Shown: piece after piece, positions 2,347 through 64,000 of the stretch
Numbering within the stretch: position 1 is the first letter of the stretch
Layout of the letters: each line of letters opens with the position of its first letter
Source: an uncultured Bacilli bacterium
GTDB taxonomy: Bacteria > Bacillota_I > Bacilli_A > RF39 > UBA660
Assembly (NCBI GenBank): GCA_934096805.1
Contig: CAKOMW010000001.1
Coordinates: forward strand, 371,712-435,711
Reading direction: 5' to 3'
Length of the DNA stretch: 64,000 nt
The notes under the pieces: model-generated
What the model was told of the DNA's origin: nothing
What the model saw: the letters and a program-made list of their open reading frames with translations, nothing else
The model's database searches: none
Position numbers and translations under genes: made by a program

Positions 2347-4428
2347 GATTTGATTGTTTATGAAATCGAATGTTATGGTTTGTTTTGGTTTTATTTCTCC
2401 TTTTATTATTAGGTGTGCTAAAGGTTCTTCGATTTCTTTTGAGATTACTCTTTTTAATGGTCTTGCTCCAAATGCTTTATCGTATCCTAATTCTACTAGA
2501 TAGTCTTTGGCTTTTGGTGTTATTTCAATTTTTATTTGTTTATCGCTTAGTCTTTGTTCTGTTGTTTCTATTAGTTTGTCTAGTATTTCGTACATTACAT
2601 CTTTAGTTAATTCATTAAAGATTATTATTTCGTCGATACGATTAATAAATTCTGGTTTTAAGACTTGTTTTAGTTCTTTTATTACTTCATCTTTTTTGTT
2701 TTCTATGATGTGGTCGCTTCCGATGTTTGAGGTCATGATGATGATTGTGTTTTTAAAGTCTACTGTTCTACCGTTAGAGTCGGTTATTCTACCATCGTCT
2801 AGGATTTGTAATAGTAGATTTAGGACTTCGGGATGGGCTTTTTCTATTTCATCGAATAGAACAATGCTGTAAGGATTTCTTCTTACGGCTTCGGTTAATT
2901 GTCCTCCTTCGTCGTATCCTACGTATCCTGGGGGAGAGCCAATTAATCTTGATGTTGAGAATTTTTCCATGTATTCAGACATGTCTATTCTTATCATGTG
3001 TTTTTCGTCGTCAAATAGTTCATAAGCTAGGGTTTTTGCGACTTCGGTTTTACCAACTCCGGTTGGCCCTAGAAACATGAAAGAACCGATTGGTTTGTTA
3101 GGGTCTTTAATGCCACTTCTTGATTTTATGATTGCTTCTGCTACTAGGTGTAAGGCTTCGTCTTGTCCTTTTACTCTTTTTTTCATGTTTTTTTCTAGGT
3201 TTAGGAGTTTTTCTTTTTCGCTGTTGATTAATTTACTTACAGGAATATTAGTCCATTTTGCTACTACTTCAGCAACTTTTTCTTCGGTTACGGTTTCGCT
3301 TAGGATTTGATTTGTTGTTTGTTTTCTTTTTTCTTCAAGTTGATGTTCCAGTTTTGGAATAGTTCCGTGTTTTAATCTTGCAGCAGTTTCTAAGTCGTAG
3401 TTGCTTTCGGCTTGTTCTAGTTCAAATTTTTTATTTTCTAGCTCTTGTTTTAATTCTTTTATTTCATTGTTTGTTTTCTTTTCTTCTTCCCATTTTGTTT
3501 TTAGGGTTTGTTCTTGTTCTTTTAGGGTTTTTAATTGTTCATTTATTTTGTTTATTCGTTGTTTTGAAAGATCATCTTTTTCTTTTTTTAGAGCTTGTTT
3601 TTCTATTTCTAGACGCATGATGTTTCTTGTTAGTTCATCTAGTTCATTTGGAACTGAATCCATTTGTACTCTTATGGTTGCACATGCTTCGTCAATTAGA
3701 TCGATGGCTTTGTCTGGTAAGTATCTATCTGTTATGTATCTATTTGACATGGTAGCTGCTTTTATTAGAGCTTTGTCTTGGATTGTTACTCCATGGTGTA
3801 TTTCGAATCTTTCTTTTAGGCCTCTTAGGATGGTGATGGTGTCTTCGACTGATGGTTCACTTATTTTTACTTTTTGGAATCTTCGTTCAAGGGCTCCATC
3901 TTTTTCAATGTATTTTCTATATTCATTTAGGGTTGTTGCTCCGATTACATGAATTTCACCACGAGCAAGCATTGGTTTTAAGATGTTTGATGTATCCATT
4001 GCACCGTCTGCTTGGCCTGAGCTTACAATGGTGTGGATTTCGTCGATAAACATTATTATTTGTCCGTTTGATTTTTTAACTTCGTTTAGGACGTTTTTTA
4101 GTCTTTCTTCGAATTCTCCACGGTATTTGGCTCCGGCGATTAATGCAGCCATGTCTAGTTCCCAAATAATTTTGTCTTTTAAGCATGCTGGGATATCATT
4201 TTTTACGATTCTTTGCGCTAATCCTTCGATGATGGCTGTTTTACCGACACCTGGTTCTCCGATTAGAACAGGGTTGTTTTTAGTTTTTCTAGATAGAATT
4301 CTTGTTATGTTTCTTATTTCTTCGTCTCTACCTATTACAGGGTCCATTTTTCCTTGTTTTACTTGTTCGTTTATATTTCGTCCATATTTTTCTAATGGAT
4401 TTTTTTCTTCCTCATATTTCATGTTCAT
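2335..4428 (-). CDS. clpB: AAA+ chaperone ClpB, short form lacking the N-terminal domain
   Basis: 697 aa with two Walker A sites ([16 protein letters not shown]) and a long coiled-coil M-domain between the nucleotide-binding domains. The protein starts directly at NBD1. Confidence 0.85.
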
Positions 4429-5744: not shown

Positions 5745-6857
5745 ATGAAAGTTTATTTAGATTATAGTGCTACTACATGTGTGGATCCTGATGTTCTTGA
5801 ACGTTTTAACTATGTGGTAGAGAATTTTTATGCTAATCCTAATTCTAGTCATGATATGGGTAGGGGGTGTAATGAACTTATTTCGTCTAGTGTTTCTAGT
5901 ATATGTGATTTTTTTGGAATTTCTTCTGATGAGATTGTTTTTACTAGTGGTGCTAGTGAGGCTAATAATACTGTTTTGAAGGGACTTACTTCTGGTAATG
6001 AAATTATTACTACTAAGTTGGAGCATTCATCAATATATGGACCTTGTAGTTATTTGCAAAAGTTAGGTTATAAGGTGTTTTTTGTTCCTCTTGATAGTGA
6101 TGGAATTGTTGATATTGATTGTTTGGAAAAGATGATTAATTCTAATACAGCGCTTGTATCTATTGGTTGTGTTAATAGTGAAGTTGGTCTTAGACAGCCT
6201 ATTGAAGAAATTGGTCTTATGTTAAAAAAGTATCCTCATGTTTTGTTTCATAGTGATATTACGCAGGCTGTTTCTAAAGTGAAGATTGATTTGACTAATG
6301 TTGATATGGCTAGTTTTTCAGGGCATAAGTTCTTTTGTTTTAAAGGTATTGGTGGTTTAATAAAGAAAAAGGATGTTAAGCTTGTTCCTTTGATTCATGG
6401 GGGTAAGAGTACTTCTGTTTACAGGAGTGGAACTCCTTCGACGGAACTTATTTGTGCACTTTCTTGTGCTTTTGATTTGATTTCTGATATGGATTCTAGG
6501 ATTTCTTATGTACATAATCTTAATAAAAAGATTAGAAAGCATGTTTCTTTATATGATAAGATTCTTATTAATAGCAATGATTTTTGTATTGATAATATAT
6601 TGAATATTAGTTTTGTGGGGAAGGATGCAAATGTCATTTTGAAGTATTTTTCTGATAGAGGTATTTATATTTCGACAAAGACGGCATGTAGTAGTGATGC
6701 TAGTTATTCGCTTTGTATTTATGAACTTTATGGTGATAAGAGCAGAGCCAGTTCAAGTGTTAGAATAAGTCTTTCTTATAAGACAACTTTGGATGAAGTT
6801 GATTATTTTCTTAAAGTATTAGATTGTTTAATGGAGGAATACGATGAAGTTAATTAA
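5745..6857 (+). CDS. Class V aminotransferase / cysteine desulfurase (NifS/IscS-like)
   Basis: 370 aa. SGHKF pyridoxal-lysine motif, fold type I PLP architecture, and RSGT near the C-terminus. Confidence 0.7.
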   Translation: MKVYLDYSATTCVDPDVLERFNYVVENFYANPNSSHDMGRGCNELISSSVSSICDFFGISSDEIVFTSGASEANNTVLKGLTSGNEIITTKLEHSSIYGPCSYLQKLGYKVFFVPLDSDGIVDIDCLEKMINSNTALVSIGCVNSEVGLRQPIEEIGLMLKKYPHVLFHSDITQAVSKVKIDLTNVDMASFSGHKFFCFKGIGGLIKKKDVKLVPLIHGGKSTSVYRSGTPSTELICALSCAFDLISDMDSRISYVHNLNKKIRKHVSLYDKILINSNDFCIDNILNISFVGKDANVILKYFSDRGIYISTKTACSSDASYSLCIYELYGDKSRASSSVRISLSYKTTLDEVDYFLKVLDCLMEEYDEVN

Positions 6858-9582: not shown

Positions 9583-10441
9583 TATGGTACAAGGTTTTTG
9601 TATGGCTCTTGCTGATAGTGTTCCTGGTATATCTGGGGGGACTGTTGCTTTTATCCTTGGTTTTTATGAAAAGTTTATTAATAGTGTTAATGCTATTGTT
9701 ACTAAGGGTGAAGATAAGAAAAAAGCGTTTTCGTTTTTGTTTAAATTAGGTATAGGATGGGCAATTGGAATGGCTCTTGCAGCGATTGTTTTGTCTAAGC
9801 TTTTTGAGGATCATATATATAGTGTTAGTTCACTTTTTATAGGGTTTATAGTGTTTGCAATTCCAATAATTATAAAGGAAGAGAAAAATACATTGAAAGG
9901 TAAGTATGGATATTTAATTTATTCTCTTATAGGAATAGCAATTGTTTCTTTGATTACTTATTTTAATCCTACTGGTGGAGGGAGTAATGTTGACCTTACT
10001 AATCTTAATCCTTTATTGTGTTTGTATGTGTTTATGGCTGGGGTTATTGCAATTTCCGCTATGGTGGTTCCTGGTATATCAGGTTCGACACTTTTGCTTA
10101 TTTTTGGTCTTTATGTACCTATTATTACTTCGATTAGTGAGGTGTTGCATTTTAATTTTGGCTTTTTACCTATTTTAATAGTATTTGGTTTTGGAGTTAT
10201 TACAGGATTGTTGCTTGTTGTTAAACTGATAAAGAAGGCTCTTGATAAGTATAGGGCTGAGACTATTTATATGGTGCTTGGTCTTATGGTTGGTTCAATA
10301 TATGCAATTATTATGGGTCCTACTAGTCTTAGTGTTCCTAAGGAAGCAATGAGTTTTGGTACTTTTAGTATTTTGTTCTTTATTTTTGGAGGTATTATTG
10401 TTTATGGACTTGAAGTTTTAAAAAGAAAACTTGATAAGTAG
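9563..10441 (+). CDS. DUF368 family membrane protein (polyprenyl-phosphate transporter family)
   Basis: Duplicated VPGISGGT / VPGISGST motifs characteristic of DUF368. Confidence 0.65.
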   Translation: MKKNIVNMVQGFCMALADSVPGISGGTVAFILGFYEKFINSVNAIVTKGEDKKKAFSFLFKLGIGWAIGMALAAIVLSKLFEDHIYSVSSLFIGFIVFAIPIIIKEEKNTLKGKYGYLIYSLIGIAIVSLITYFNPTGGGSNVDLTNLNPLLCLYVFMAGVIAISAMVVPGISGSTLLLIFGLYVPIITSISEVLHFNFGFLPILIVFGFGVITGLLLVVKLIKKALDKYRAETIYMVLGLMVGSIYAIIMGPTSLSVPKEAMSFGTFSILFFIFGGIIVYGLEVLKRKLDK

Positions 10442-10536
10442 TTTCATATTGGCACTTTTTAGTGCCTTTTTCTATGGGAAAATATTTTGTACATTGTGAT
10501 TTTATTTGCATATATTATGATAGCAGGAGGTGTATT

Positions 10537-11151
10537 ATGAATTTAGAGAGATGTTTTAATCCAAATGGTAATGTTGATGATATTAATAAAGTTAATTGTT
10601 TTTATATAGGTGTTCCTGGGACAAGGGGACAAAAAGGCGAAAAAGGAGATGTTGGTCCAAAGGGAGATAAAGGTGATATTGGACCTCAAGGTGAGAAAGG
10701 TGAAAAAGGTGATGCTGGAGAGTTAGTGCCTTCTTCGACTGAGGCTATGTTTGCGACTGGTTTTGTTGATAAAGATGATAATGGGGTAATGGAGTTTGAT
10801 ACGCCATGGCTTATACCCAGTGATTCTGCAATTTTTAAAAATGTGAGTAATACAGGAGTTGGAATTGTTTCTGGTATTTATGAGATTGTTGTGTCTGGTT
10901 TGATAAGAGAAGCTGATGACACACATGGGGCGGAGGTTTATCTTGCTAATAGTGAGGGCTCGGCAATTAAGGATTTAACCTTTGAACTAAAAGCAGGTTA
11001 TGGAAAACAAATGTATTTTTCGAAGAGCATTGCTTTTAGGTTTGAAAGTGATACGATTTTAAGTTTGAATGTTAATTTACTTGGTGATTTGGGGACTTCA
11101 AGTGTTGTTGTTGAAAATGTTAATTTAGTTATGAAGAAGATTCATGAATAG
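10537..11151 (+). CDS. Collagen-like triple-helix repeat protein with a BclA/C1q-like C-terminal domain
   Basis: Twelve GXY triplets (GVPGTRGQKGEKGDVGPKGDKGDIGPQGEKGEKGDAGE) followed by a ~150 aa beta-rich domain. An AGGAGGTG RBS precedes the ATG at 10537; the ORF track starts earlier at 10462. Confidence 0.6.
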   Translation: MNLERCFNPNGNVDDINKVNCFYIGVPGTRGQKGEKGDVGPKGDKGDIGPQGEKGEKGDAGELVPSSTEAMFATGFVDKDDNGVMEFDTPWLIPSDSAIFKNVSNTGVGIVSGIYEIVVSGLIREADDTHGAEVYLANSEGSAIKDLTFELKAGYGKQMYFSKSIAFRFESDTILSLNVNLLGDLGTSSVVVENVNLVMKKIHE

Positions 11152-11736
11152 AATGTTTTAAAGAAATTAATTAAAATTACTTGTATAAAGATTAAATAGG
11201 TAGTATATTATATATAAAGAAGCACGTTCTTTAAACGTCGATTTCATGTGTATACAAGTTGCGACGTTTCTCTATATCAGAGAGACGTCGCTTTAGTTAT
11301 TAATTAAACATTTAGATTAATCTATAGATGATAATTAATAAAAAAAGGATTATAATAAGCAGAATGCTAATCAAGTCGTTTTTTTTACTCATTATACATC
11401 ACCTCGCTTTCATAGAAAGTGAAGCCGACGCCCAAAGATACGTGCATGATACAAGTATAAAGTATATGAATACACAATGCAAATGAGTAAAAATGGCATT
11501 TGGTATAAAAAATAGTATTCAATTTTAAAAATTGTCTTAGGGAAAAATAACTTTTGATATAAAAGGGGATACTAAAAAGTATTATTTTGTATAAATTGAA
11601 AAAAATTCTTGAAAAAGAAGTTTTTTTGTTATAGAATTAACTTATAAGAAACTAAGAGAGGAGGAAGAAATTTTGTAATAAACATACATATGTTTGTGAA
11701 ATTTCTGAATTTTTTATGATAAACAAATATTCGTCT

Positions 11737-11747
11737 GGGGGGGGGGG
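11737..11747 (+). repeat. Homopolymeric G11 tract (candidate slipped-strand phase-variation switch)
   Basis: Eleven consecutive G in an otherwise ~28% GC region. It lies between an upstream ATG (11716) and the body of the 11792 surface-protein ORF. Confidence 0.9.
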
Positions 11748-11791
11748 TCAATACTACTAACCCTATAAATAAAAAAAGAAAGGTATTATAT

Positions 11792-13318
11792 TTGATAGCT
11801 TTATCAATGTTTAGTATAGGGATAATAACACTAAGCACTTATGCGTTATATAATAGTGAGTTAGTGACAGGTGAAAACACTATAAAATCAGGACAGGTAA
11901 AAATGAGTTATACTGAAGTAAATGAATTGGCTTTAAATAATGCGTTACCTATGAAAGATGAAGAAGGGAAAAATCTTAATGATTACTTTGATTTTACTGT
12001 GTCATCATGGATAAAAACAAATGCTAATGATAGTACAGAAAGAAAATTAAATTATAATATAGTAATAGAAATGATATCAATGTATATTAATGGAATGGAA
12101 ATACAAGAAGGAAATGATTATTATGTCCCAGGAAAACTTTTATCAGATTATATGTATAAAGTGTATTTAACTACTTTAGATGATAATGGTAATGAAACAG
12201 AAATAACAGAACCAATGACAATTGAAGAGTTAAATAATTATATTATTAAGTCTCAAGAAGAAACATTTAAAAATGGTAAAGCTCAAGTAGATACAAAATA
12301 TAGACTAAGGATATGGGTAGACTATAATTATGATGTAAATATATATAAAACTTTTAATGAAAATGACAATGGATTTACCGTAGATAGTGTAGGCTATAAA
12401 TTTAGAGTAAATGTAAATACAAATAAGATAGAACAACAAGAAATGATACCAATACTTAATATTCCATTGGGAAAAGATAAAACAATAAAAGTAACTCATG
12501 AAATAGATGATACTTTACAAGTAGATAATAAGTTTGCAACAGAATATAGATATACAGGTAAGAATCCTAATAATTATGTTTTATTTAATAATGAATTATG
12601 GAGAATAATAGGAGTAATACCTACTGAAGATACTTCTGGTAATGTAGAAAATAGATTAAAAATAATAAGAACTGAATCGATAGGAAATAAGAAATGGAAT
12701 AGTTGTGAATATACTGTCAAAAATTCTATTTATACTTGCAATGATTCTGGTAAATATTTAAATGATTGGACTGGTGCAACTTTAAATACATATTTAAATA
12801 ATGATTATTATAATACATTAACAAGTGATGCCAAAAACATGATAGGAACAACAAAGTATTATCTTGGAGGATATAGTGGTATAAATATAACATCTGATGT
12901 AATGTGGCAATATGAAAGAAAGAATGATACAAATAGAACAGAATATTATTATGGAACAAACCCAGTAATGCAAAATGATGCATCAAAAAAGATAGCGCTA
13001 ATGTATGCAAGCGATTATGGATATGCTTCAAGTAATGTATGTAAATCTGTCGTTACCAGCATAGGAGCATATGATTCATCTTTTTGCACCTCAACAAATT
13101 GGTTATATTCTGGTTCTGATGAATGGTTACTTCCGCAGAGTTCAGGCGATTCCAGCTATGCTTTCAGTGTGGATTCGACTAACGGTGTCGATAACTACTA
13201 CAACCTAGTCTACATAGACGAGTATACGGTCCGCCCAGTCCTTTATCTGTCATCTAACGTAAAGATTTCAGGTGGAAATGGGACTTCGGAACAACCATAT
13301 CAACTTAGTATCAGTTGA
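11792..13318 (+). CDS. Secreted surface protein, paralog A: TasA/SipW-type N-terminal signal region plus C-terminal DUF1566/Lcl-like C-type-lectin-fold domain. A-rich foreign composition.
   Basis: N-terminal LSTYALYNSELVTGENTIKSGQV resembles the TasA/camelysin AFNDIKS...GTLDL region. The C-terminus ends ...EWLLPQSS...YTVRPVLYL (DUF1566-like). The last ~40 codons switch to NNC codons. The TTG start at 11792 is the ORF-track call; an alternative ATG at 11716 becomes in-frame with G10. Confidence 0.6.
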   Translation: MIALSMFSIGIITLSTYALYNSELVTGENTIKSGQVKMSYTEVNELALNNALPMKDEEGKNLNDYFDFTVSSWIKTNANDSTERKLNYNIVIEMISMYINGMEIQEGNDYYVPGKLLSDYMYKVYLTTLDDNGNETEITEPMTIEELNNYIIKSQEETFKNGKAQVDTKYRLRIWVDYNYDVNIYKTFNENDNGFTVDSVGYKFRVNVNTNKIEQQEMIPILNIPLGKDKTIKVTHEIDDTLQVDNKFATEYRYTGKNPNNYVLFNNELWRIIGVIPTEDTSGNVENRLKIIRTESIGNKKWNSCEYTVKNSIYTCNDSGKYLNDWTGATLNTYLNNDYYNTLTSDAKNMIGTTKYYLGGYSGINITSDVMWQYERKNDTNRTEYYYGTNPVMQNDASKKIALMYASDYGYASSNVCKSVVTSIGAYDSSFCTSTNWLYSGSDEWLLPQSSGDSSYAFSVDSTNGVDNYYNLVYIDEYTVRPVLYLSSNVKISGGNGTSEQPYQLSIS

Positions 13319-13358
13319 GAGTTTTTGAACGAGTCTGCAAGGTAAAATCTTGCGACGA

Positions 13359-13400
13359 GTAATTGAAGAAGAAGTTTTTTGTTTTCTTCTTTTCTTTTTT
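13359..13400 (+). terminator. Intrinsic terminator downstream of paralog A
   Basis: Stem aagaagaa / ttcttctt with a T-rich tail. Confidence 0.5.
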
Positions 13401-13435
13401 CTTTGTTTATTATATAATGGTGGTGAGGTGATACG

Positions 13436-14194
13436 ATGAGGGCACTTATAACTGGGGCTGGTTCTGGGATTGGTCGAGAAATGGCTATTTATTTGGATAG
13501 TATTTCTTATGAGCTAATACTTGTTGATAAGGATGGTTCTTCTTTGGAAAAGTTGAAGTCTGATTTAAAGAATGATCATAAGTTTATTGTTACTGATCTT
13601 TGTGATTTGAAGAAAGTTAAGGATTTATATATTATTACACGTAAGGATAATATTGATATGCTTATTAATAATGCTGGTTTTGGATTTTATGGTGATTATA
13701 ATTCTTGTGATTTACTTACGGAGCTTGATATGATTAATGTTAATGTTGTTGCTGTTCATGTGCTTACTCGTATGTTTTTAAAGGATATGGTTAAGAAGGA
13801 TAAGGGTTATATTTTGAATGTTGCTTCTAGTGCTGGGTTGCTTCGTGGTGGTCCTTTAATGAGTTGTTATTATGGTACTAAGGGTTATGTTGTTGATTTT
13901 ACGTGTGCTCTTTATGAAGAGCTTCGTAGGAATAAATCTCATGTTGTTGTTTCTTGTTTGTGTCCTGGGCCTGTTAGTACTAATTTTAATAAGGTAGCTG
14001 GTGTTAATTTTAATATTAAGTCTCTTTCTGCTTGTGGTGTTGCTCGTTATGGGCTTAAGAAGATGTATTTGGATAAGAAGCTTATTATTGTTCCTGGTTT
14101 TTGGGTTAGGGTTGGCGTTTTCGTTAGTAGGTTTTTGCCTGTTAAGTGGCTTCTTAGAATAACTTATAATATTCAAAGGAAAAAGGGTAGATAG
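13436..14194 (+). CDS. Short-chain dehydrogenase/reductase (SDR)
   Basis: N-terminal TGAGSGIG Rossmann motif and the NNAG and Y..K catalytic pattern. Confidence 0.75.
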   Translation: MRALITGAGSGIGREMAIYLDSISYELILVDKDGSSLEKLKSDLKNDHKFIVTDLCDLKKVKDLYIITRKDNIDMLINNAGFGFYGDYNSCDLLTELDMINVNVVAVHVLTRMFLKDMVKKDKGYILNVASSAGLLRGGPLMSCYYGTKGYVVDFTCALYEELRRNKSHVVVSCLCPGPVSTNFNKVAGVNFNIKSLSACGVARYGLKKMYLDKKLIIVPGFWVRVGVFVSRFLPVKWLLRITYNIQRKKGR

Positions 14195-14195
14195 A

Positions 14196-14948
14196 ATGAA
14201 GTATTTTATTAAATTTTCGTATGATGGCTCTTGTTTTTCTGGTTTTCAAAGACAAAAGGGTCTTAGAACCGTGCAGAGTGTAATGGAAGAGTGTCTTACT
14301 TCTTTGAATAATGGCAATTTTGTTAGTTTATGTGCTTCTGGTAGAACTGATAAGGGGGTTCATGCTAGAGGGCAGTGTGCCCATTTTTGTCTTGATGTTG
14401 ATGTTAAGTTATATAATTTAAAAAAATATCTTAATAAGTGTTTTAATGGAGAAATATATGTATTGGATGTTTTTTTGGTTGATGATGGTTTTCATGCTAG
14501 GTATGATGTTTTGTCTAAGACTTATTGTTATTATATAAATATGGGAGAATTTAATCCTTGTATGAGAAATTATGTTCTTCAGTATAATAGAGCTTTGGAT
14601 GTTTCTTTGATGAAAGAGGCTTCTTTGGTATTTTTAGGAGAACATGATTTTAGAAGTTTTTGTTTTGATTCTAAAAGTCAGGATAATTGTGTTAGGACTA
14701 TTTATGATGTAAATATAAGTGTCAATGATTGTATAGTCGAGATTAGGTTTACAGGTAATGGTTTTCTTAGAAAAATGGTGAGAAATATGGTTTCTGTGCT
14801 TCTTTTGGTTGGCTCTGGAAAGATTAATTGTTCTGATGTTGTTAGTATACTTGAATGTCAAGAAAAGTCGTATAATGTCAAATGCGTGTCTTCTTGTGGA
14901 CTTTATCTTGACAATGTAGTTTACGGTGGTGAATTTGATGAGTTATAG
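14196..14948 (+). CDS. truA: tRNA pseudouridine(38-40) synthase TruA
   Basis: YDGSCFSGFQRQ and the GRTDKGVHA catalytic Asp motif. Confidence 0.8.
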   Translation: MKYFIKFSYDGSCFSGFQRQKGLRTVQSVMEECLTSLNNGNFVSLCASGRTDKGVHARGQCAHFCLDVDVKLYNLKKYLNKCFNGEIYVLDVFLVDDGFHARYDVLSKTYCYYINMGEFNPCMRNYVLQYNRALDVSLMKEASLVFLGEHDFRSFCFDSKSQDNCVRTIYDVNISVNDCIVEIRFTGNGFLRKMVRNMVSVLLLVGSGKINCSDVVSILECQEKSYNVKCVSSCGLYLDNVVYGGEFDEL

Positions 14949-39191: not shown

Positions 39192-41123
39192 ATGAAGAAA
39201 AGTATTTATTATTTATTTATATTTGGATTTTTATTTTTTGTATTTAGTTTTAGTGTTAATGCTTTAGAAGCTAGTATGAGTGTAAAATGTAATACTTTGA
39301 AGCTTAATGGTAGCTCTACTTGTAAAGTTTATGCAAATATAAGTGGAGGAGGTCTTGAAGGTGTTAGTGTTTCTTCGTTAGAGATTGTTTCTGGTGATGA
39401 TGTTGTTGCTATTGCGGAAACTTTTAAGGCTAATGATAATAGATTTTCTGCGGGAAAGAATGTGTATTTAGGTACTTTTAAGATAAAGTCTTTGGGAAAG
39501 AATGGTACAGGTAAAGTTAATTTAAAGCTTGTTGCTAGGAGTGATCCAGGGCAAGCTACTGTTACTCTTAGTCCTAAGACGGGAGTTGTGGCAACGTTTA
39601 ATGTTTTGTCTTCGGTTGCAACACTTTCTAGTATAAGTGTTAATGATGCTCCGATTAATGGTTTTGATAGCAATGTTTATTCTTATAAACTTAGTGGAAT
39701 TACTACTAGTAGTGTAAAGGTGTCTGCGCTTGGTAGTCTTTCTAGTGTAAAGGTAAGTGGTGCTGGTACTCATAAGTTGAAATGTGGTAATAATACTGTT
39801 GTTTTAAATACTGTTTCACAGGATAAGAGTAAAAAGTTAAAATATACACTTACTATTAATAGAACTTGTGATGATAATACAACTTTAAAGAATATAGTTT
39901 TATCTAGTGGTACTTTGGCTCCTGCTTTTAGTGCTAGTACAACTGATTATAAAGTTAATGTTGATTCTAAGACTGAAAATATTACAATTAATGTTGATAA
40001 AGGTAGTGAAGGGCAAAAAATAAGTGGTCTTGTTAATAATAAAAAGCTTGCTTTTGGTGATAATACTTTTAAGATAAAGGTTACTAGTGAAAAGGGTTCT
40101 AGTAGGACTTATAAGATTATAGTTAATCGTGCTGATGATAGGTCTAATAATGCGCTTTTGTCCACTCTTACTTTAGATAGTGGTAAGCTTAATTTTGATA
40201 AGAATGTATTTAATTATGAAGTTAAGGTTTTAAATACTGTAGAAAAAATTAATGTTGTTGCTAATGCAGAGGATGCAAAGGCTAAGGTTGATGTTACTAA
40301 TCCTGATACTTTGAAAGAGGGAGAAAATAACATAGTAGTTAAGGTAACTGCTGAGAATGGTTCAACACAAGAGTATACGATAAAGGTTAATAGACTTAAA
40401 GCTGGAGAAGTTATGGGGGATAATCCTAATATAAAGTTACTTACTATTACAGGTTATACTATTAATTTTAATCCTCTTACGACTAGTTATAATTTAAAGA
40501 TTGATAATAAGACTGATAGTTTAGGAATTAATGTTATAATGGAAGAAGATGGTGCAACTTATTTAATTAGTGGAAATGAAAACTTAAAAGATGGTTCGGT
40601 TATTGTTATTGATACTACTTCTTTAGATGGAACTAAGAATACTTATAAGATTATTATTGAAAAGAGTAATACTGATTTTTATATTCTTATTGGGGCTGGA
40701 GTGCTTCTTGTTGGAAGTCTTAGTGCTATTATAGCGATAATGGTTAAAAAGAGAAAAGGTAAGAATAATGGTATTATGGATTCTATAGGTAGTAGTGCTG
40801 GTAGTGTGGATGCATCAAAGAGTGATGTTGTGGAAGAGGTTAATCCAATTCAAGAAGAACCTGTAGAAGGTGGTGACTTTGGTAAGAGTAAGGGTTGGTT
40901 TAGAAAGCATAAGAGTGTACCTAAGAATGAAGTCATGTCTTTTGAAGAATTAAAGAAATATGATCCTACTAATAAAGGGAATGGTATTGTAGGTAGATCT
41001 GCTCCATCAGAAGAGTATGAAAGGGTAGAAATTACTGAGGATCAAACTAAACAATGTCCTAAGTGTGGACATAGAATTAATTTTTCTGCTAAAGTGTGTC
41101 CTTATTGTGATAAAGAGTTTTAA
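39192..41123 (+). CDS. Surface protein with multiple cadherin-like beta-sandwich repeats, a TM anchor and a C-terminal zinc-ribbon tail
   Basis: Signal peptide, then repeats of L(S/T)L..G.L.P.F.....Y.V (Cadherin-like pfam12733 pattern). TM helix YILIGAGVLLVGSLSAIIAIMV, then a C-terminal CPKCGH...CPYCDKEF. Confidence 0.6.
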   Translation: MKKSIYYLFIFGFLFFVFSFSVNALEASMSVKCNTLKLNGSSTCKVYANISGGGLEGVSVSSLEIVSGDDVVAIAETFKANDNRFSAGKNVYLGTFKIKSLGKNGTGKVNLKLVARSDPGQATVTLSPKTGVVATFNVLSSVATLSSISVNDAPINGFDSNVYSYKLSGITTSSVKVSALGSLSSVKVSGAGTHKLKCGNNTVVLNTVSQDKSKKLKYTLTINRTCDDNTTLKNIVLSSGTLAPAFSASTTDYKVNVDSKTENITINVDKGSEGQKISGLVNNKKLAFGDNTFKIKVTSEKGSSRTYKIIVNRADDRSNNALLSTLTLDSGKLNFDKNVFNYEVKVLNTVEKINVVANAEDAKAKVDVTNPDTLKEGENNIVVKVTAENGSTQEYTIKVNRLKAGEVMGDNPNIKLLTITGYTINFNPLTTSYNLKIDNKTDSLGINVIMEEDGATYLISGNENLKDGSVIVIDTTSLDGTKNTYKIIIEKSNTDFYILIGAGVLLVGSLSAIIAIMVKKRKGKNNGIMDSIGSSAGSVDASKSDVVEEVNPIQEEPVEGGDFGKSKGWFRKHKSVPKNEVMSFEELKKYDPTNKGNGIVGRSAPSEEYERVEITEDQTKQCPKCGHRINFSAKVCPYCDKEF

Positions 41124-41188
41124 AAGTACTTGAAAAAGTGCTTTTTTTTTATTATAATTATTTTAGAATAGACTATGGAGGTTAGATT

Positions 41189-42748
41189 ATGCCAGTTAGA
41201 GAAAAGTTTGATAGTTTTAAAAAGGATAATCCTTTGTTTAGAGATGTAAAAGAGTATAATAAGTATTTATTAATGTTGATTAGTGTTTCTATATTAGTAC
41301 TTACTGGGGTTATTTCTTATTTTGTAAGTGGTTCTTATGCTAGATGGAATATGGTTGTGGAGTCTAGTAACATATTGAAGTTAGGGGTTAAAAGTCTTAA
41401 TTTGGATGAAAGTGGTGCTAACAAGCCTGAACTTACAAGTAATATGATACCGGTTTATTATGATAATACAAGTAGTAGTTGGAAGAAAGCTGATGAAAAT
41501 AATAGGGATGAAGCTTATAAGTGGTATGATTATGATAGTAAAATGTGGGCAAATGCTGTAACTGTTACAGAAGCTAATAGAGATACTTATTTGAAAGCAA
41601 GCGCAGGTACAGAAATACCAATGGATGATATAAATACAATGTGGGTATGGATACCAAGATATACATATACATATCTGAAAACTAATACACCAGAAGAAAT
41701 AAAGATAAAGTTTGAGAAGGGAATAGAAAGCACAGGTACAATAAAGTGTACTGATAATGTATCAGGAAGTGGAACAACATCACAAACATGTACAGATACA
41801 ACAAATGGAGGTTTAAAAGCAGGAACAAGTACATATACCCATCCAGCTTTCACATTTGGAGATACAGAACTAACAGGATTATGGGTAGGTAAGTTTGAGA
41901 GTAGTGCAACAACAATACCAACAAGTGCTTCAACAACAGAATCTACAGTAATAATAAAACCAAATGTCCAATCATTAAGATATAAAACAGTATCATATCA
42001 ATTTAGAGATGCAAGACAAATGGAGAAAGCAAATAATGTATATGGCTTTTCACAAAGTAATAACACAACATTTAATTGGAATGGTAATTTAACTGGAGAT
42101 ATCAATAATATAGATATACATATGATGAAGAATACAGAATGGGGAGCAGTAACATATTTATATCATTCAAAATATGGAAGATGTACTTCTGGTACTTGTG
42201 TAGAATTAACAATAAATAACTGTAGTACATATACAACAGGAATAGGAGCAGATACAGTAAGTGCTAATGAGTCTTCGATAACATGTACGACAAATAAGAA
42301 TAAATATAATGGAGAAAGCGGAGTAAAAGCAAGTACAACAGGAAATGTATATGGTGTGTATGACATGTCTGGAGGCACATGGGAATATACAATGGGCAAT
42401 ATGGTAAATTCATCTAATCAATTTTATACATCAAGTGCAAGTAATTGGAGTACAACAACATATCCATTATCAAAGTACTATGATAGTTATACATATAATA
42501 CTGATGAAGCAACATATTCAAAAGGAAGGTTAGGAGATGCAACAATAGAAATGAGTCCTTCATCTAGTTCTACTACTTCATGGTATTCAGATTATGCCTT
42601 CTTCCCATACTCGAACATGACTTGGTTCCTACGTGGGGGTGGCTACAGTAATGGTACGGGTGTGGGTGCTTTCTCCTTTGGATTTGGCAATGGTTCTGCG
42701 CTCAACTTCCGCTCGTTTCGGGTTTCTCTTGGCGTTCAGGCCTCTTAA
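41189..42748 (+). CDS. Secreted protein, paralog B: SipW/TasA-type signal-anchor plus C-terminal FGE-sulfatase-like C-type-lectin-fold domain (candidate DGR variable protein)
   Basis: N-terminal ...GSYARWNMVVESSNILKLG after a hydrophobic anchor. The C-terminal GNVYGVYDMSGGTWEYT ... RGGGYSNG ... NFRSFRVS matches the FGE-sulfatase signature motifs (G.YDM.GN.WEW, RGGS., GFR). The last ~45 codons are GC-rich NNC/NNT. A GGAGGT RBS precedes the start. Confidence 0.65.
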   Translation: MPVREKFDSFKKDNPLFRDVKEYNKYLLMLISVSILVLTGVISYFVSGSYARWNMVVESSNILKLGVKSLNLDESGANKPELTSNMIPVYYDNTSSSWKKADENNRDEAYKWYDYDSKMWANAVTVTEANRDTYLKASAGTEIPMDDINTMWVWIPRYTYTYLKTNTPEEIKIKFEKGIESTGTIKCTDNVSGSGTTSQTCTDTTNGGLKAGTSTYTHPAFTFGDTELTGLWVGKFESSATTIPTSASTTESTVIIKPNVQSLRYKTVSYQFRDARQMEKANNVYGFSQSNNTTFNWNGNLTGDINNIDIHMMKNTEWGAVTYLYHSKYGRCTSGTCVELTINNCSTYTTGIGADTVSANESSITCTTNKNKYNGESGVKASTTGNVYGVYDMSGGTWEYTMGNMVNSSNQFYTSSASNWSTTTYPLSKYYDSYTYNTDEATYSKGRLGDATIEMSPSSSSTTSWYSDYAFFPYSNMTWFLRGGGYSNGTGVGAFSFGFGNGSALNFRSFRVSLGVQAS

Positions 42749-59552: not shown

Positions 59553-60569
59553 GTGACTGTTTTAACAAAGAAAAGACTAAAGCCAATGATGAGTATTGAT
59601 GATATGATTATTAGTCTTAAGGCTAAAAATATTAAGTTTAATTATATTAGTGAAGATGAGGTTAAAAATTATTTGATGTTTAATAATAGTTATTATAATG
59701 TGTTGAGTTATGAGGGGAATTTTATGAAGTATCCTAGTCCAGCAGGAAAGTATGAAGGAATGTTTATTGATTTAGATTTTGCTTATTTAAAGGATATGTC
59801 TATTATTGATTTAAGGGTGAGGTTTCTTCTTTTAGATATGATTTTAGATATAGAACATTATCTAAAGTTAAGAATACTTAATATGATGTATGCTATAGAA
59901 CAAGAAGATGGCTATAGAGTAGTTAATTTATATTTAGAAAATGATTATAATAATGAAAAAAGATTACATTCTAGTATAAGGAAGAAAGCTTTTAATAGTT
60001 ATTATAGAAAGATGTTTTCTGATATTGATATGGATGATGATAAGAAACTAGAAGATATACCTATATGGGATTTTTTAGAGATAGCAACACTGGGTGAGCT
60101 TGTAGATTTTTATGATTTTTTTACAAAAGAATATGACTTGAAAATTGATAAAGAATATGTTCATATACTTAGAGATATAGTAAGATTAAGAAACGCTGCC
60201 GGACATAATACCAATGTTTTAACTGACTTAGGAGAAAGTGATAAGCCTCAAAGGCCACATATGCATGTAATTAGGTATTTAGATAGGTGTGGAATACGAT
60301 TGAGGGCTAGATATAAAAGATTATCTAACTCAAAAATAAGACAGATTACATATACACTTTATATGTTTAATAAAATAGTAACAAGTGAAGGAGTGAAGAA
60401 AAAGATAAATAAAAAAATAAACTACTTGTTTTATAAGAGGATACCTAAGAACAAAGATTATTATAAGAATAATGATTTATTAAAGTCTATTTATTATTAT
60501 TTTGATAAGATAATAAGTATTGATTATAATCCAAAAAAATCTGAAAGAAATTTCAGAAAAAAGGCTTGA
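59553..60569 (+). CDS. Abi_2 family abortive-infection protein (AbiD/AbiF-like)
   Basis: ~340 aa with Abi_2-like conserved blocks (LMFNNSYYNVLSYEGNF ... LRNAAGHN). The likely start is GTG 59553 behind a GGAGGTG RBS; the ORF track starts at 59478. Confidence 0.6.
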   Translation: MTVLTKKRLKPMMSIDDMIISLKAKNIKFNYISEDEVKNYLMFNNSYYNVLSYEGNFMKYPSPAGKYEGMFIDLDFAYLKDMSIIDLRVRFLLLDMILDIEHYLKLRILNMMYAIEQEDGYRVVNLYLENDYNNEKRLHSSIRKKAFNSYYRKMFSDIDMDDDKKLEDIPIWDFLEIATLGELVDFYDFFTKEYDLKIDKEYVHILRDIVRLRNAAGHNTNVLTDLGESDKPQRPHMHVIRYLDRCGIRLRARYKRLSNSKIRQITYTLYMFNKIVTSEGVKKKINKKINYLFYKRIPKNKDYYKNNDLLKSIYYYFDKIISIDYNPKKSERNFRKKA

Positions 60570-61050
60570 CTATGCTAACACAATATGTTATATTAAATGC
60601 ATAGGGAAAAAAACGTTAAATCGTTTTTTGTAAGATAGCTATTATCGGTAGCGGTCTATTTTTTTGTCTTGATAATCAATAAACATTGGTTATGATTTTA
60701 ATAAAATTAATAAAATAATTGGAGAAAAAGGTGTGAATAATTAGCGAAAAATGCTTGACTGTGTTAACACTATGTGTTATATTAGATACATAGGGAAAAA
60801 AACGTTTTAACGTTTTTTGTAAGATAGCTATTATCGGTAGCGGTCTATTTTTTTGCTTTAATAATCGATAAATGTTGGTTATAGTTTTAATAAAGTAATT
60901 AAAGAAAAGCACTTGACTATATCAACACAGTATGTTATATTATATTTGTTAGTAAAAAAACGTTTTAACATTTTTTGTAAGACAGCTATTTTCGGATAGG
61001 GGTCTATTTTTTTGTTTTGATTGATTTTTTCTTTTTTTCGTGATATAATA
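60565..61050 (+). repeat. Three tandem ~160-190 bp repeat units (starts 60565, 60754, 60912). Each has a sigma-A-like promoter (TTGACT-17-TATATT), then a short transcript with conserved hairpins and a U-tract (putative small RNA array)
   Basis: Direct-repeat units share cttgact...tatgttatatta...atagggaaaaaaacgtt(t)aa(t/a)cgttttttgtaagatagctattatcggtagcggtctatttttttg. Hairpin 1 is AAAAAACG-loop-CGTTTTTT. A second hairpin (ATAATC(A/G)A / TTGGTTAT) is shared by copies 1-2 with a compensatory difference (A-U in copy 1, G-U in copy 2). Copy 3 is degenerate and leads into the next gene. Confidence 0.7.
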
Positions 61051-61075
61051 AAGCAACTTTTAAGGGGGCTTTTTT

Positions 61076-62403: not shown

Positions 62404-64000
62404 TGTGAGGAAAAATATTACTAAAGATGATATAAAAAAGATGTTACCTGCTTTAGTAGTGTTATTTATTTTAATAGCATTAGGTACATATGCTTTTGAT
62501 AAAGTTGATTTACTTGGTAAACAAAATTTAGGAATAGTTGCTAATGAAGAGGTGGCTTTAAGGCTTGTTGAGGGGGAACAAGATTTTAAAGTAGGGAATA
62601 CTCCTCTTAGTGATAGTGCTGGGAAGGCTCAGACTACTTATTATGAGTTTAATGTAGAAGGGGTTTCTAATGTTGTATATAATTTAGATTATTATTTGTA
62701 TTTGATACCTAAAAATGGTGGTAATACAGTTGATGCTTCTTTTGTTAAACTTTATCTTACTAAAGTGGTTAATAATTCTGAGACAGTAGTGGTTGATGTT
62801 ACTACTTTAGATAAGTTAAAGGATTTTGGATTTAATAAGTTAGTTACAAATAGCACTTTTAATTTTACTAGTAATAGTAAGACTACTAAAACAGATACAT
62901 ATAGATTAAGAGTTTGGTTAGCTGAAGGTGCTACTGATAATGAAGAAACGGCTCCTGATGTAAAAGAAACTGATGATGGTCTTAATATTAAGGCTATATC
63001 AGGAGGGTATAGTTTTAGTATGGGTGTTAGTTCATATAAGATTGGTGAACCTAATAAACCAGAGTTAACTAGTAATATGATACCTGTGTATTATGATAGT
63101 ACGAATGCAGTATGGAAAAAAGCAGATAGTAGTAATACAAATGAAACATATAAATGGTATGATTATGATAATAAAATGTGGGCAAATGCTGTGACTGTTA
63201 CTGAAACTAATAGAGATACTTATTTGAAAGCGAATGCAGGAACAGAAATAAATATGAATGATATAAATACAATGTGGGTATGGATACCAAGATATACATA
63301 TACATATTTAAATACAAATACACCAGAGGAGATAAAGATAAAGTTTGAAAATGGAACAGAAAGTCATGGTACAATAAAGTGTACTGATGCAGTAACAGGA
63401 AATGGCACAACATCCCAAACATGTACAGATACAACAAATGGAAGTTTAAAAGCAGGAACCAGTACATATACACATCCAGCTTTTACATTTGGAGATACAG
63501 AATTAACAGGATTATGGGTAGGAAAGTTTGAGAGTAGTGCAACAGAAATACCAACATCATCATCTACAACAGAATCAACAATTATAATAAAACCAAATGT
63601 CCAGTCATTAAGATATAAAGCAGTATCATATTTCTTTCGCGATGCCCGACAAATGGAGAAAACAAGTAATGTATATGGTTTTCCACAAAGTAGTAGTACA
63701 ACATTTAACTACAACGGTAATTTAACTGGAGACACAAATAATATAGATATACATATGATGAAGAATACAGAATGGGGAGCAGTAACATATTTATATCATA
63801 GTAAATATGGAAGATGTACAAACGGTTCATGTGAAGAAATAACAATAAATAATTGTATTAATATGACAACAGGAATAGGAGCAGACACAGTAAGTGCAAG
63901 CAGGTCTGATACAACATGTACAACAGATAAGAATAAATATAATGGAGAGAGTGGAGTAAAAGCATCAACCACTGGAAATGTATATGGTGTGTACGACATG
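62404..64000 (+). CDS. Secreted protein, paralog C (partial, runs off the window end): TasA/SipW-type N-terminal region plus the same FGE-sulfatase-like lectin-fold core as 41189-42748
   Basis: GTG start behind an AAGGAG RBS. N-terminal LGTYAFDKVDLLGKQNLGIVANEEVAL resembles the TasA N-terminus. From NKPELTSNMIPVYYD to NVYGVYDM it is visibly almost identical to paralog B (only scattered residue and base differences, 63054-64000 vs 41419-42367). Confidence 0.6.

Follow-up and report, generated by a model that had tools for sequence, protein, structure and literature searches.

We examined a 64,000-nucleotide (nt) stretch of DNA from an uncultured Bacilli bacterium (GenBank assembly GCA_934096805.1, contig CAKOMW010000001.1, positions 371,712 to 435,711 of the forward strand), hereafter the window, in which a gene for a putatively secreted protein with a C-terminal DUF6273-like domain carries a run of 11 Gs (G11) between an ATG codon and its long open reading frame (ORF). 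An initial annotation, made from this DNA alone, had proposed that the run acts as a phase-variation switch that is currently OFF. Numbered from the first letter of the window, the features of this locus are as follows:

11261–11291, + strand: terminator-like hairpin ending the upstream collagen-repeat gene (13-bp stem with 7 GC pairs, T-rich tail)
11609–11637, + strand: promoter-like site TTGAAA-17-TAGAAT (10/12 match)
11658–11664, + strand: Shine-Dalgarno (SD) sequence GAGGAGG, with a 40-nt insertion between it and the ATG
11666–11706, + strand: palindromic insert, a predicted hairpin between SD and ATG (minimum free energy −13 to −14 kcal/mol, z −2.0 to −2.6)
11716–11736, + strand: leader ATG and six conserved codons (M I N K Y S S), conserved at the DNA level at more than 40 loci
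11737–11747, + strand: G11 homopolymer, a predicted slippage-prone switch (G11, OFF; G10 or G13, ON)
11758–11760, + strand: TAA stop that closes the leader frame in the G11 state, after 14 codons
11771–11845, + strand: coding region of a putative signal peptide or signal anchor (KKRK n-region, 17-residue hydrophobic core, TYA)
11792–13318, + strand: main ORF as mechanically listed, with a TTG start and 508 aa (stop at 13316–13318)
13134–13238, + strand: GC-rich segment resembling a variable region (VR), a candidate VR of a diversity-generating retroelement (DGR), ending CGCCCAG

The terminator-like hairpin at 11261–11291 marks the gene behind the tract as its own transcription unit. Read from the ATG at 11716–11718, the G11 frame encodes MINKYSSGGGGQYY and then meets the TAA at 11758–11760, as the initial annotation had stated. 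The surface-protein frame, 522 codons long and open from 11723, lies in register −1 to this ATG, and the only canonical starts within it are TTG 11792 and ATG 11807. One G less (G10) or two more (G13) fuses ATG 11716 to the ORF, again in line with what had been predicted; the product then begins MINKYSSGGGVNTTNPINKKRKVLYLIALSMFSIGIITLSTYA, with YSSGGGVNTTNPINK as its leader peptide. The claim that the run is unique was borne out by a run-length count: G11 is the sole G or C run of at least 7 in the window, where the next G run has 6 Gs and no C run reaches 5. Under a model of the + strand composition (A.295, C.094, G.205, T.407; 29.8% GC), about 0.0013 G runs of at least 11 are expected in 64 kb, and the tract is not a chance feature of the window. 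The same strand is strongly asymmetric overall, with 20.5% G against 9.4% C and 40.7% T against 29.5% A; it contains 17 G runs of at least 5 as opposed to zero such C runs, and nearly all long ORFs lie on it.

The sequence that would be gained by in-frame translation has the appearance of a signal peptide. In the ORF frame, KKRK is followed by VLYLIALSMFSIGIITL and then by S-T-Y-A, an order that matches, by rule, the Sec-type pattern of a basic n-region, a hydrophobic stretch of 15–20 residues and small residues at −3 and −1, and the predicted mature N-terminus is LYNSELVTGENTIK. The family alignment, with an invariant Lys in the n-region and a conserved G/S-T-Y-A, agrees with the initial annotation in pointing to a signal peptide here. 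We presume a resemblance to the SipW-cognate type (TYA-L/I-W/Y...TG.NT); when the ON protein was scanned against NCBIfam along with two paralogues, no family matched at E up to 1, the SipW-cognate signal model included, leaving membership in the SipW type unsupported. Family members that have no tract mostly start M-x-N-K-K-K-[IV]-L, immediately before the hydrophobic core. The counterpart of TTG 11792 in a paralogue (L007) is TTA or CTT, a Leu codon and not a start, and most family members have Leu in place of Met31 (ATG 11807), so neither internal codon appears to be conserved as a start. Because these codons are not conserved and their products would lose the invariant Lys and the rest of the basic n-region, as had been foreseen for them, ATG 11716 is supported as the functional start and G11 as the OFF state.

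We searched for homologues with the hypothetical ON protein as query. The OFF allele is called as a 503-aa protein starting MFSIG... (P0001) on 8 contigs, and a 533-aa protein of the same 90% cluster (P0121), identical to the predicted ON protein, occurs on 1 contig, a 325-kb contig (locus L072) of another assembly in the European Nucleotide Archive, ERZ27287093; the window's own assembly there is ERZ4561113. Compared with window positions 10216–14818, L072 showed 0 mismatches over 4,602 nt and 1 gap, which was G10 for G11; by ungapped flank comparison, this was the only same-allele pair found to differ in tract length. In strains that have diverged by about 5%, orthologous loci with the gene order VCA0040-like / collagen / X / adh_short / TruA have tracts of G9, G10 or G11, in and out of frame. 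The sequences that follow TCGTCT in five of these loci are:

L002 and L003: G10 + ATACT; ON, 515 aa (P0002)
L004 and L005: A + G9 + CAATACT; OFF
L006: G9 + ATACT; OFF

The downstream ORF is intact throughout these five loci, at 504–522 codons. Since G9, G10 and G11 occur between identical or near-identical flanks, tract length varies and both frames occur in nature, which is the outcome that the initial annotation had anticipated for a comparison of tract lengths across strains.

The tract and its leader recur well beyond this locus. The leader ATG-xAA-AAC-AAA-TAT-TCG-T[AC]T, which at the protein level reads ATG xNKYS[SY] before G7–11, belongs to a cassette with the consensus GGAGGT-N7-ATG xAA AAC AAA TAT TCG TAT, G run, then CAAAATACT. 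A collection of species-representative genomes yielded 42 loci in five uncultured Bacilli metagenome-assembled genomes (MAGs), 15 of them with G9–G11 at the same place, and a DNA-pattern scan of metagenome contigs yielded 19 further loci with G8–G10. Individual copies include a G9 locus with RNB and BipA as neighbours (L007, ON), a locus reading GGAG7 (L008, ON), a G10 locus next to MutS (L009, ON) and another G10 locus that is OFF (L010). Two gene classes are headed by the cassette, namely the DUF6273 class ('...KLTNPNRKKVL...') and a class beginning '...NPLFKDVKEYNKYLL...', the latter resembling a window paralogue at 41189 whose own leader is tract-free. Paralogues within one MAG differ in tract length, and on the window's own contig, about 150 kb away (L073), a G10 tract precedes a 640-codon ORF and a G9 tract a 473-codon ORF, both OFF. 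The Gly codons are GGG GGG GGG in every copy despite the 30% GC content, and different residues (Q, V, D, K) follow the tract, from which it follows that the DNA homopolymer, and not a peptide motif, is what is conserved.

To place these tracts in the context of all G runs, we surveyed the window together with 72 loci, 434 kb in total. There were 46 G runs of at least 7, and in 42 of these a leader ATG stood 18–22 nt before the run; the remaining four had kept the AAATATTCG motif and lost the ATG. Frame was scored at the 35 loci where a leader ATG could be recognised and the ORF behind it reached 300 codons or more, giving 12 ON and 23 OFF, near the 1:2 ratio expected for a freely drifting frame. 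By tract length, the counts were:

G7: 1 ON, 0 OFF
G9: 7 ON, 4 OFF
G10: 4 ON, 15 OFF
G11: 0 ON, 4 OFF

The downstream ORFs of the scored loci are open for 338–605 codons, although random frames close within a few codons at 30% GC.

The cassette also affects how these genes are annotated and assembled. In canonical copies (L034 1213–1260, L041, L013, L010), the G10 state makes an in-frame ATG from TAT+G (MGGGQ...), and an ATG within the SD (ATGGAGGT, MEVKLWKTNIRMGGG...) is sometimes in frame as well; gene callers adopt either one, producing mis-started proteins such as P0006 and P0060. Gene callers thus shorten OFF alleles (503 vs 533 aa) and mis-start others (MGGGQ..., MEVKLW...), so that annotation and pangenome statistics of these MAGs are systematically distorted at tract loci. 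Five of the 19 metagenome contigs (L055, L059, L060, L064, L068) end within about 200 nt of the leader or poly-G site. It seems that the shared cassette interrupts assembly, whether through collapsed repeats or through heterogeneous tracts, and MAGs may under-count such genes as a result.

The promoter-like site upstream of the tract is near-identical in the orthologues and in L034, L007 and L073, and the region around it is 74% identical to that of a window paralogue (41122–41175, repeat family D18). We also considered the tract as a promoter spacer and ruled this out, as about 100 nt separate the conserved −10 from the G run downstream of it. Its position downstream of the conserved promoter-like site locates the tract in the transcribed, translated leader.

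Simple-sequence-repeat contingency loci are defined by six features, four of which we found at this locus. The repeat is of hypermutable length (about 7–8 units or more) and lies within a coding region or promoter, G11 occupying codons 8–11 of the leader ORF; it is over-represented relative to genome composition (0.0013 expected per window); its change toggles between a truncated and an intact frame, from a 14-codon peptide at G11 to 533 aa at G10; and its length is polymorphic among near-identical genomes in which the ORF remains intact. The other two features, frequent and reversible switching inside a clone and control of protein amount by the frame, are predicted for this locus. With the G10 allele of L072 and a family of mixed frames and intact ORFs behind it, the initial proposal of a slipped-strand ON/OFF switch that is now OFF gains support, and we consider it very probable that G11 is a genuine switch of this kind for the gene of a secreted or surface-anchored DUF6273 protein. 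Slipped-strand mispairing during replication would add Gs to the tract or remove them. At G10 or G13, ATG 11716 would be in frame and give a 533-aa precursor with a complete signal peptide, which would be exported (ON); at G11 or G12, translation would end after 14–17 codons (OFF), and translation begun at the internal TTG or ATG would leave out the basic n-region. As the promoter-SD-leader-polyG cassette appears to be portable and heads many paralogues of the family in this lineage, each cell would display a stochastic subset of a repertoire that may also be DGR-diversified at its C-terminus.

Expression might instead proceed regardless of the tract, either from the internal starts at TTG 11792 and ATG 11807 or through RNA-polymerase or ribosome slippage that restores the frame. 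The sequence AGAAAGG at 11776–11782, 9 nt upstream of TTG 11792, is complementary in our reading to the 16S 3′ end and could serve as a weak SD, slippage on long A/T homopolymers is generally known, and the in-frame TAT+G codon of canonical G10 cassettes offers gene callers a ready start. Yet the window copy has TCT before the tract and hence no TAT+G start, the internal TTG and ATG are not family-conserved starts, and their products would be without the invariant Lys n-region needed for export. The length polymorphism between L072 and the window is directly observed in DNA, and constitutive expression would give no cause for an unbroken G9–11 to persist in dozens of copies. We therefore judge tract-independent expression unlikely as a full account; as leakiness of a switched gene it is possible.

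A shade less probable again is that the length differences are artefacts of sequencing or assembly, such that the true tract is in frame everywhere and the OFF calls are consensus errors. Long G runs are known to be error-prone on short-read platforms, the sole same-allele difference (L072 vs the window) amounts to a single G between assemblies that may not be independent, and the contig ends near the cassette described above fall close to the tract in several metagenomes. Set against this, the window contig has a coverage of about 34x (from the record name), the OFF call was made on 8 contigs as compared with 1 for the ON call, paralogues of one MAG differ in tract length, and two thirds of the 35 scored loci, which come from many assemblies made with various assemblers, have an out-of-frame tract of G9–G11. 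Because OFF loci are too frequent and too patterned, random consensus error does not explain the family-wide pattern. Very improbable, finally, is a fixed inactivating frameshift in a decaying pseudogene: all three known cassettes of the window genome are OFF in consensus and one relative (L043) has a broken downstream ORF, but the 522-codon ORF is intact here, the identical allele occurs in frame in L072, in orthologues about 5% diverged the ORF is uninterrupted whether the state is ON or OFF, and the C-terminal VR retains a DGR-type scaffold.

Several points nonetheless weigh against the slipped-strand switch as we have set it out. If L072 and the window re-assemble the same reads, G10 and G11 could stem from one mixed population or from an error of the consensus, and frequent, reversible switching within a population is a prediction made from assembled sequences. 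No SD adjoins ATG 11716, the nearest one, GAGGAGG at 11658–11664, lying 51 nt upstream, and the strength of translation of the ON form is accordingly uncertain; the hairpin that would bridge this distance has a modest z-score (about −2 to −2.6). With a possible weak SD before TTG 11792, some expression may leak through in the OFF state. The signal peptide call comes from inspection by eye and from the family alignment and not from a predictor; export and surface location are predicted properties of the ON form. The AlphaFold2 (AF2) model of the protein is also poor, with a predicted local distance difference test (pLDDT) score of 54.

The region between SD and ATG has a structure of its own. 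Paralogue L007 carries the same GGAGGAAGAAA joined directly to TTTTATG, and relative to this arrangement the window and its orthologues contain an insert of 40–41 nt between GGAGGA and TTTTATG. In L055, one base pair of this insert has changed in a compensatory way. The other two cassettes of the window's genome have different inserts, with a stem TAGGTGT...ACACCTA unrelated to that of the window, but all three share the geometry GGAGG-A-[stem...stem]-9 nt-ATG. Their SD-ATG inserts measure 40–75 nt (window 11658–11718; L073 at about 3680–3745 and about 6200–6251), with fold z-scores of −0.4 to −2.6. The 41-nt insert is single copy in the window and was otherwise found at orthologous loci only, and is thus not a dispersed repeat. 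An origin as a duplicated start region seemed possible by eye, yet the inverted-repeat reading fits better. In the modelled fold, the hairpin may conceivably loop out the insert and place the SD near the AUG, and across the three cassettes the inserts could either split the ribosome-binding site, an arrangement that has been reported for phage T4 genes, or act as regulatory hairpins. An Rfam scan of the whole window returned five tRNAs only, with no leader or riboswitch family at the locus. The case for the switch does not require the hairpin. A small upstream ORF at 11690–11719 (ATG TTT GTG AAA TTT CTG AAT TTT TTA TGA), whose stop overlaps the leader start as ATGA, is kept in the orthologues, which are too similar to be informative on this point, and it could reflect translational coupling or chance.

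The initial annotation had also placed a DGR beneath the proposed switch, and this part was upheld incompletely. Comparison of orthologues over 13134–13238 revealed an invariant scaffold with hypervariable codon positions 1 and 2 that ends in CGCCCAGTC, as a VR would. A BLAST search with the 3′ end of the gene found no template repeat (TR) in the window, and none of 16 window ORFs scanned with Pfam, mostly ORFs near paralogues, had a reverse transcriptase (RT) domain. A TR was present in a contig of a related MAG (CAKOLK010000007; L026 2583–2684), about 200 nt downstream of a family gene and with a VR at 2196–2300, and reads ...AATTCCAACAATGCTTTCAATGTGAATTCG...AATAACAACAACAACGTCAACAACAAC... 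VRs of the same MAG differ from this TR only at adenines, at 13/13, 19/19 and 16/16 positions (48/48); the window VR shows 22 differences from this heterologous TR, 14 of which (14/22) fall at TR adenines. Downstream of the TR, L026 encodes a 124-aa ORF (2867–3241) that looks MutS-domain-I-like when judged by eye, and no RT is reached before the end of the locus. The VR scaffold with its CGCCCAGTC end recurs in dozens of paralogues of each MAG, suggesting that a single DGR has a very large number of targets on the chromosome. From these adenine-specific differences we take the DGR to be real in this lineage, and, on indirect grounds, it probably acts on the gene behind the window's G tract.

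Combining these layers, we tentatively propose a two-tier surface-receptor system in uncultured human-gut Bacilli, which we rate a little short of even: one DGR would rewrite the C-terminal lectin-like binding sites of dozens of paralogues on the chromosome, each paralogue would be gated independently by the poly-G tract of its portable cassette such that a random one-third or so of a repertoire under constant re-diversification is displayed per cell, and in the window's genome the structured SD-AUG insert may add a third, translational layer. Should the switch prove real, the lineage joins two programmed hypervariation mechanisms on one large secreted lectin-like family, and offers a natural system in which 'which receptor' can be set against 'whether to show it' under phage, IgA and substrate pressure.

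The mechanism itself is that of a classic contingency locus. Homopolymer contingency loci are textbook features of Campylobacter, Neisseria, Haemophilus and Helicobacter. Genomes of C. jejuni contain about 29 G/C tracts of at least 7 with a modal length of 9, and lengthening from G8 to G11 raises mutability about 10-fold (PMC3401435, PMC4965091). The lineage studied here resembles C. jejuni in its genome of about 30% GC, its rare and strongly over-represented G9–11 tracts within reading frames, with modal lengths of 9–10, and its several loci with frameshift ON/OFF control. It differs in that its tracts occupy one fixed leader position of one secreted paralogous family, whereas those of C. jejuni are scattered among unrelated surface-modification enzymes, and in that the host belongs to spore-forming, Gram-positive-type Bacilli, a relative of which has a MutS gene; to our knowledge, C. 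jejuni is without mismatch repair.

In Neisseria, pilC (G9–20) and opa (CTTCT repeats) likewise carry genic repeats in surface-protein genes (PMC5953494). As in those genes, the repeat here lies in the 5′ coding region of a putative surface adhesin, upstream of or within the signal peptide, and, as with opa, a multi-copy family in which each copy switches independently would give combinatorial display. The pilC and opa repeats reportedly lie within the signal-peptide-coding region. Unlike the present system, the Neisseria genes belong to Gram-negative pathogens, the opa repeat is a pentamer, and variation of the genes themselves comes from recombination, with no DGR known to act on them. The Vlp, Vsa and Vsp proteins of Mycoplasma are variable surface lipoprotein families with homopolymer ON/OFF control; they share with our family low-GC, Bacillota-related hosts, multigene surface proteins and a conserved 5′ cassette, but the proteins are unrelated, ours have no lipobox, and the poly-A of M. 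hyorhinis vlp sits in a promoter spacer and acts on transcription, in contrast to a poly-G in the coding leader that would act on translation.

Published work describes DUF6273 as a C-type-lectin-like domain diversified by DGRs (PMC10743442), and the C-type-lectin-fold targets of DGRs include DUF6273 'tentaclins' and Faecalibacterium prophage proteins (PMC10743442, PMC11792537). The family described here is like these targets in its C-terminal DUF6273-like domain, its GC-rich candidate VR and an end (CGCCCAGTC) like that of an initiation of mutagenic homing (IMH) site. Known DGR targets are mostly phage receptor-binding proteins, and, unlike them, the present genes are chromosomal, encode putative signal peptides, number dozens per genome and carry a 5′ poly-G switch. 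A search of the full-text literature gave no description pairing a DGR with homopolymer phase variation on the same genes, and in the literature on poly-G phase variation in MAGs or Firmicutes nothing described such a system; homopolymer contingency loci are little documented in Gram-positive-type gut commensals, and on DGR targets there are none in the searchable literature. What appears to be new is therefore the host, an uncultured spore-forming gut Bacilli lineage, together with a portable leader cassette across a paralogous family and its coupling to DGR targets.

The protein is laid out as an N-terminal beta-rich domain followed by the DUF6273-like domain. Pfam matched DUF6273 in the C-terminal half at E = 4.8e-4, under the Pfam cut-off, and PF19789 is precomputed for many homologues. 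The AF2 model, built from a 35-sequence alignment, had a mean pLDDT of 53.7, with the C-terminal half below 50, and included a long N-terminal helix at residues 16–46. The flanking genes are housekeeping genes (VCA0040-like, short-chain dehydrogenase, TruA), and FtsA, FtsZ, SpoIIIAH and Germane are encoded elsewhere in the window; together with the 30% GC content, these point to a chromosomal gene of a spore-forming, low-GC bacterium. Scanning IMG/VR viral contigs with the leader and poly-G pattern gave 0 matches, so the cassette is not phage-borne in IMG/VR. The related genomes are uncultured Bacilli MAGs from Hadza gut metagenomes.

Immediately upstream, positions 10462–11151 encode a protein of collagen-triple-helix (GXY) repeats whose C-terminal domain is globular. 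Its gene adjoins the one with the G tract in all orthologous loci, and we take the protein to be reminiscent of BclA-type exosporium proteins. Two further paralogues, at 41189–42748 and 62405–64000, show a weak FGE-sulfatase/C-lectin-type match and share 84% identity over 300 nt (family D2). Both have ordinary leaders with no tract, the promoter of the first resembling that of the gene with the G tract, and they seem to belong to the superfamily of that gene as constitutive members. Just upstream of the second, in the intergenic region that separates an Abi_2-domain gene from an unannotated 409-aa ORF, positions 60558–61061 hold three tandem copies of a unit of about 157 nt at 62–87% identity.

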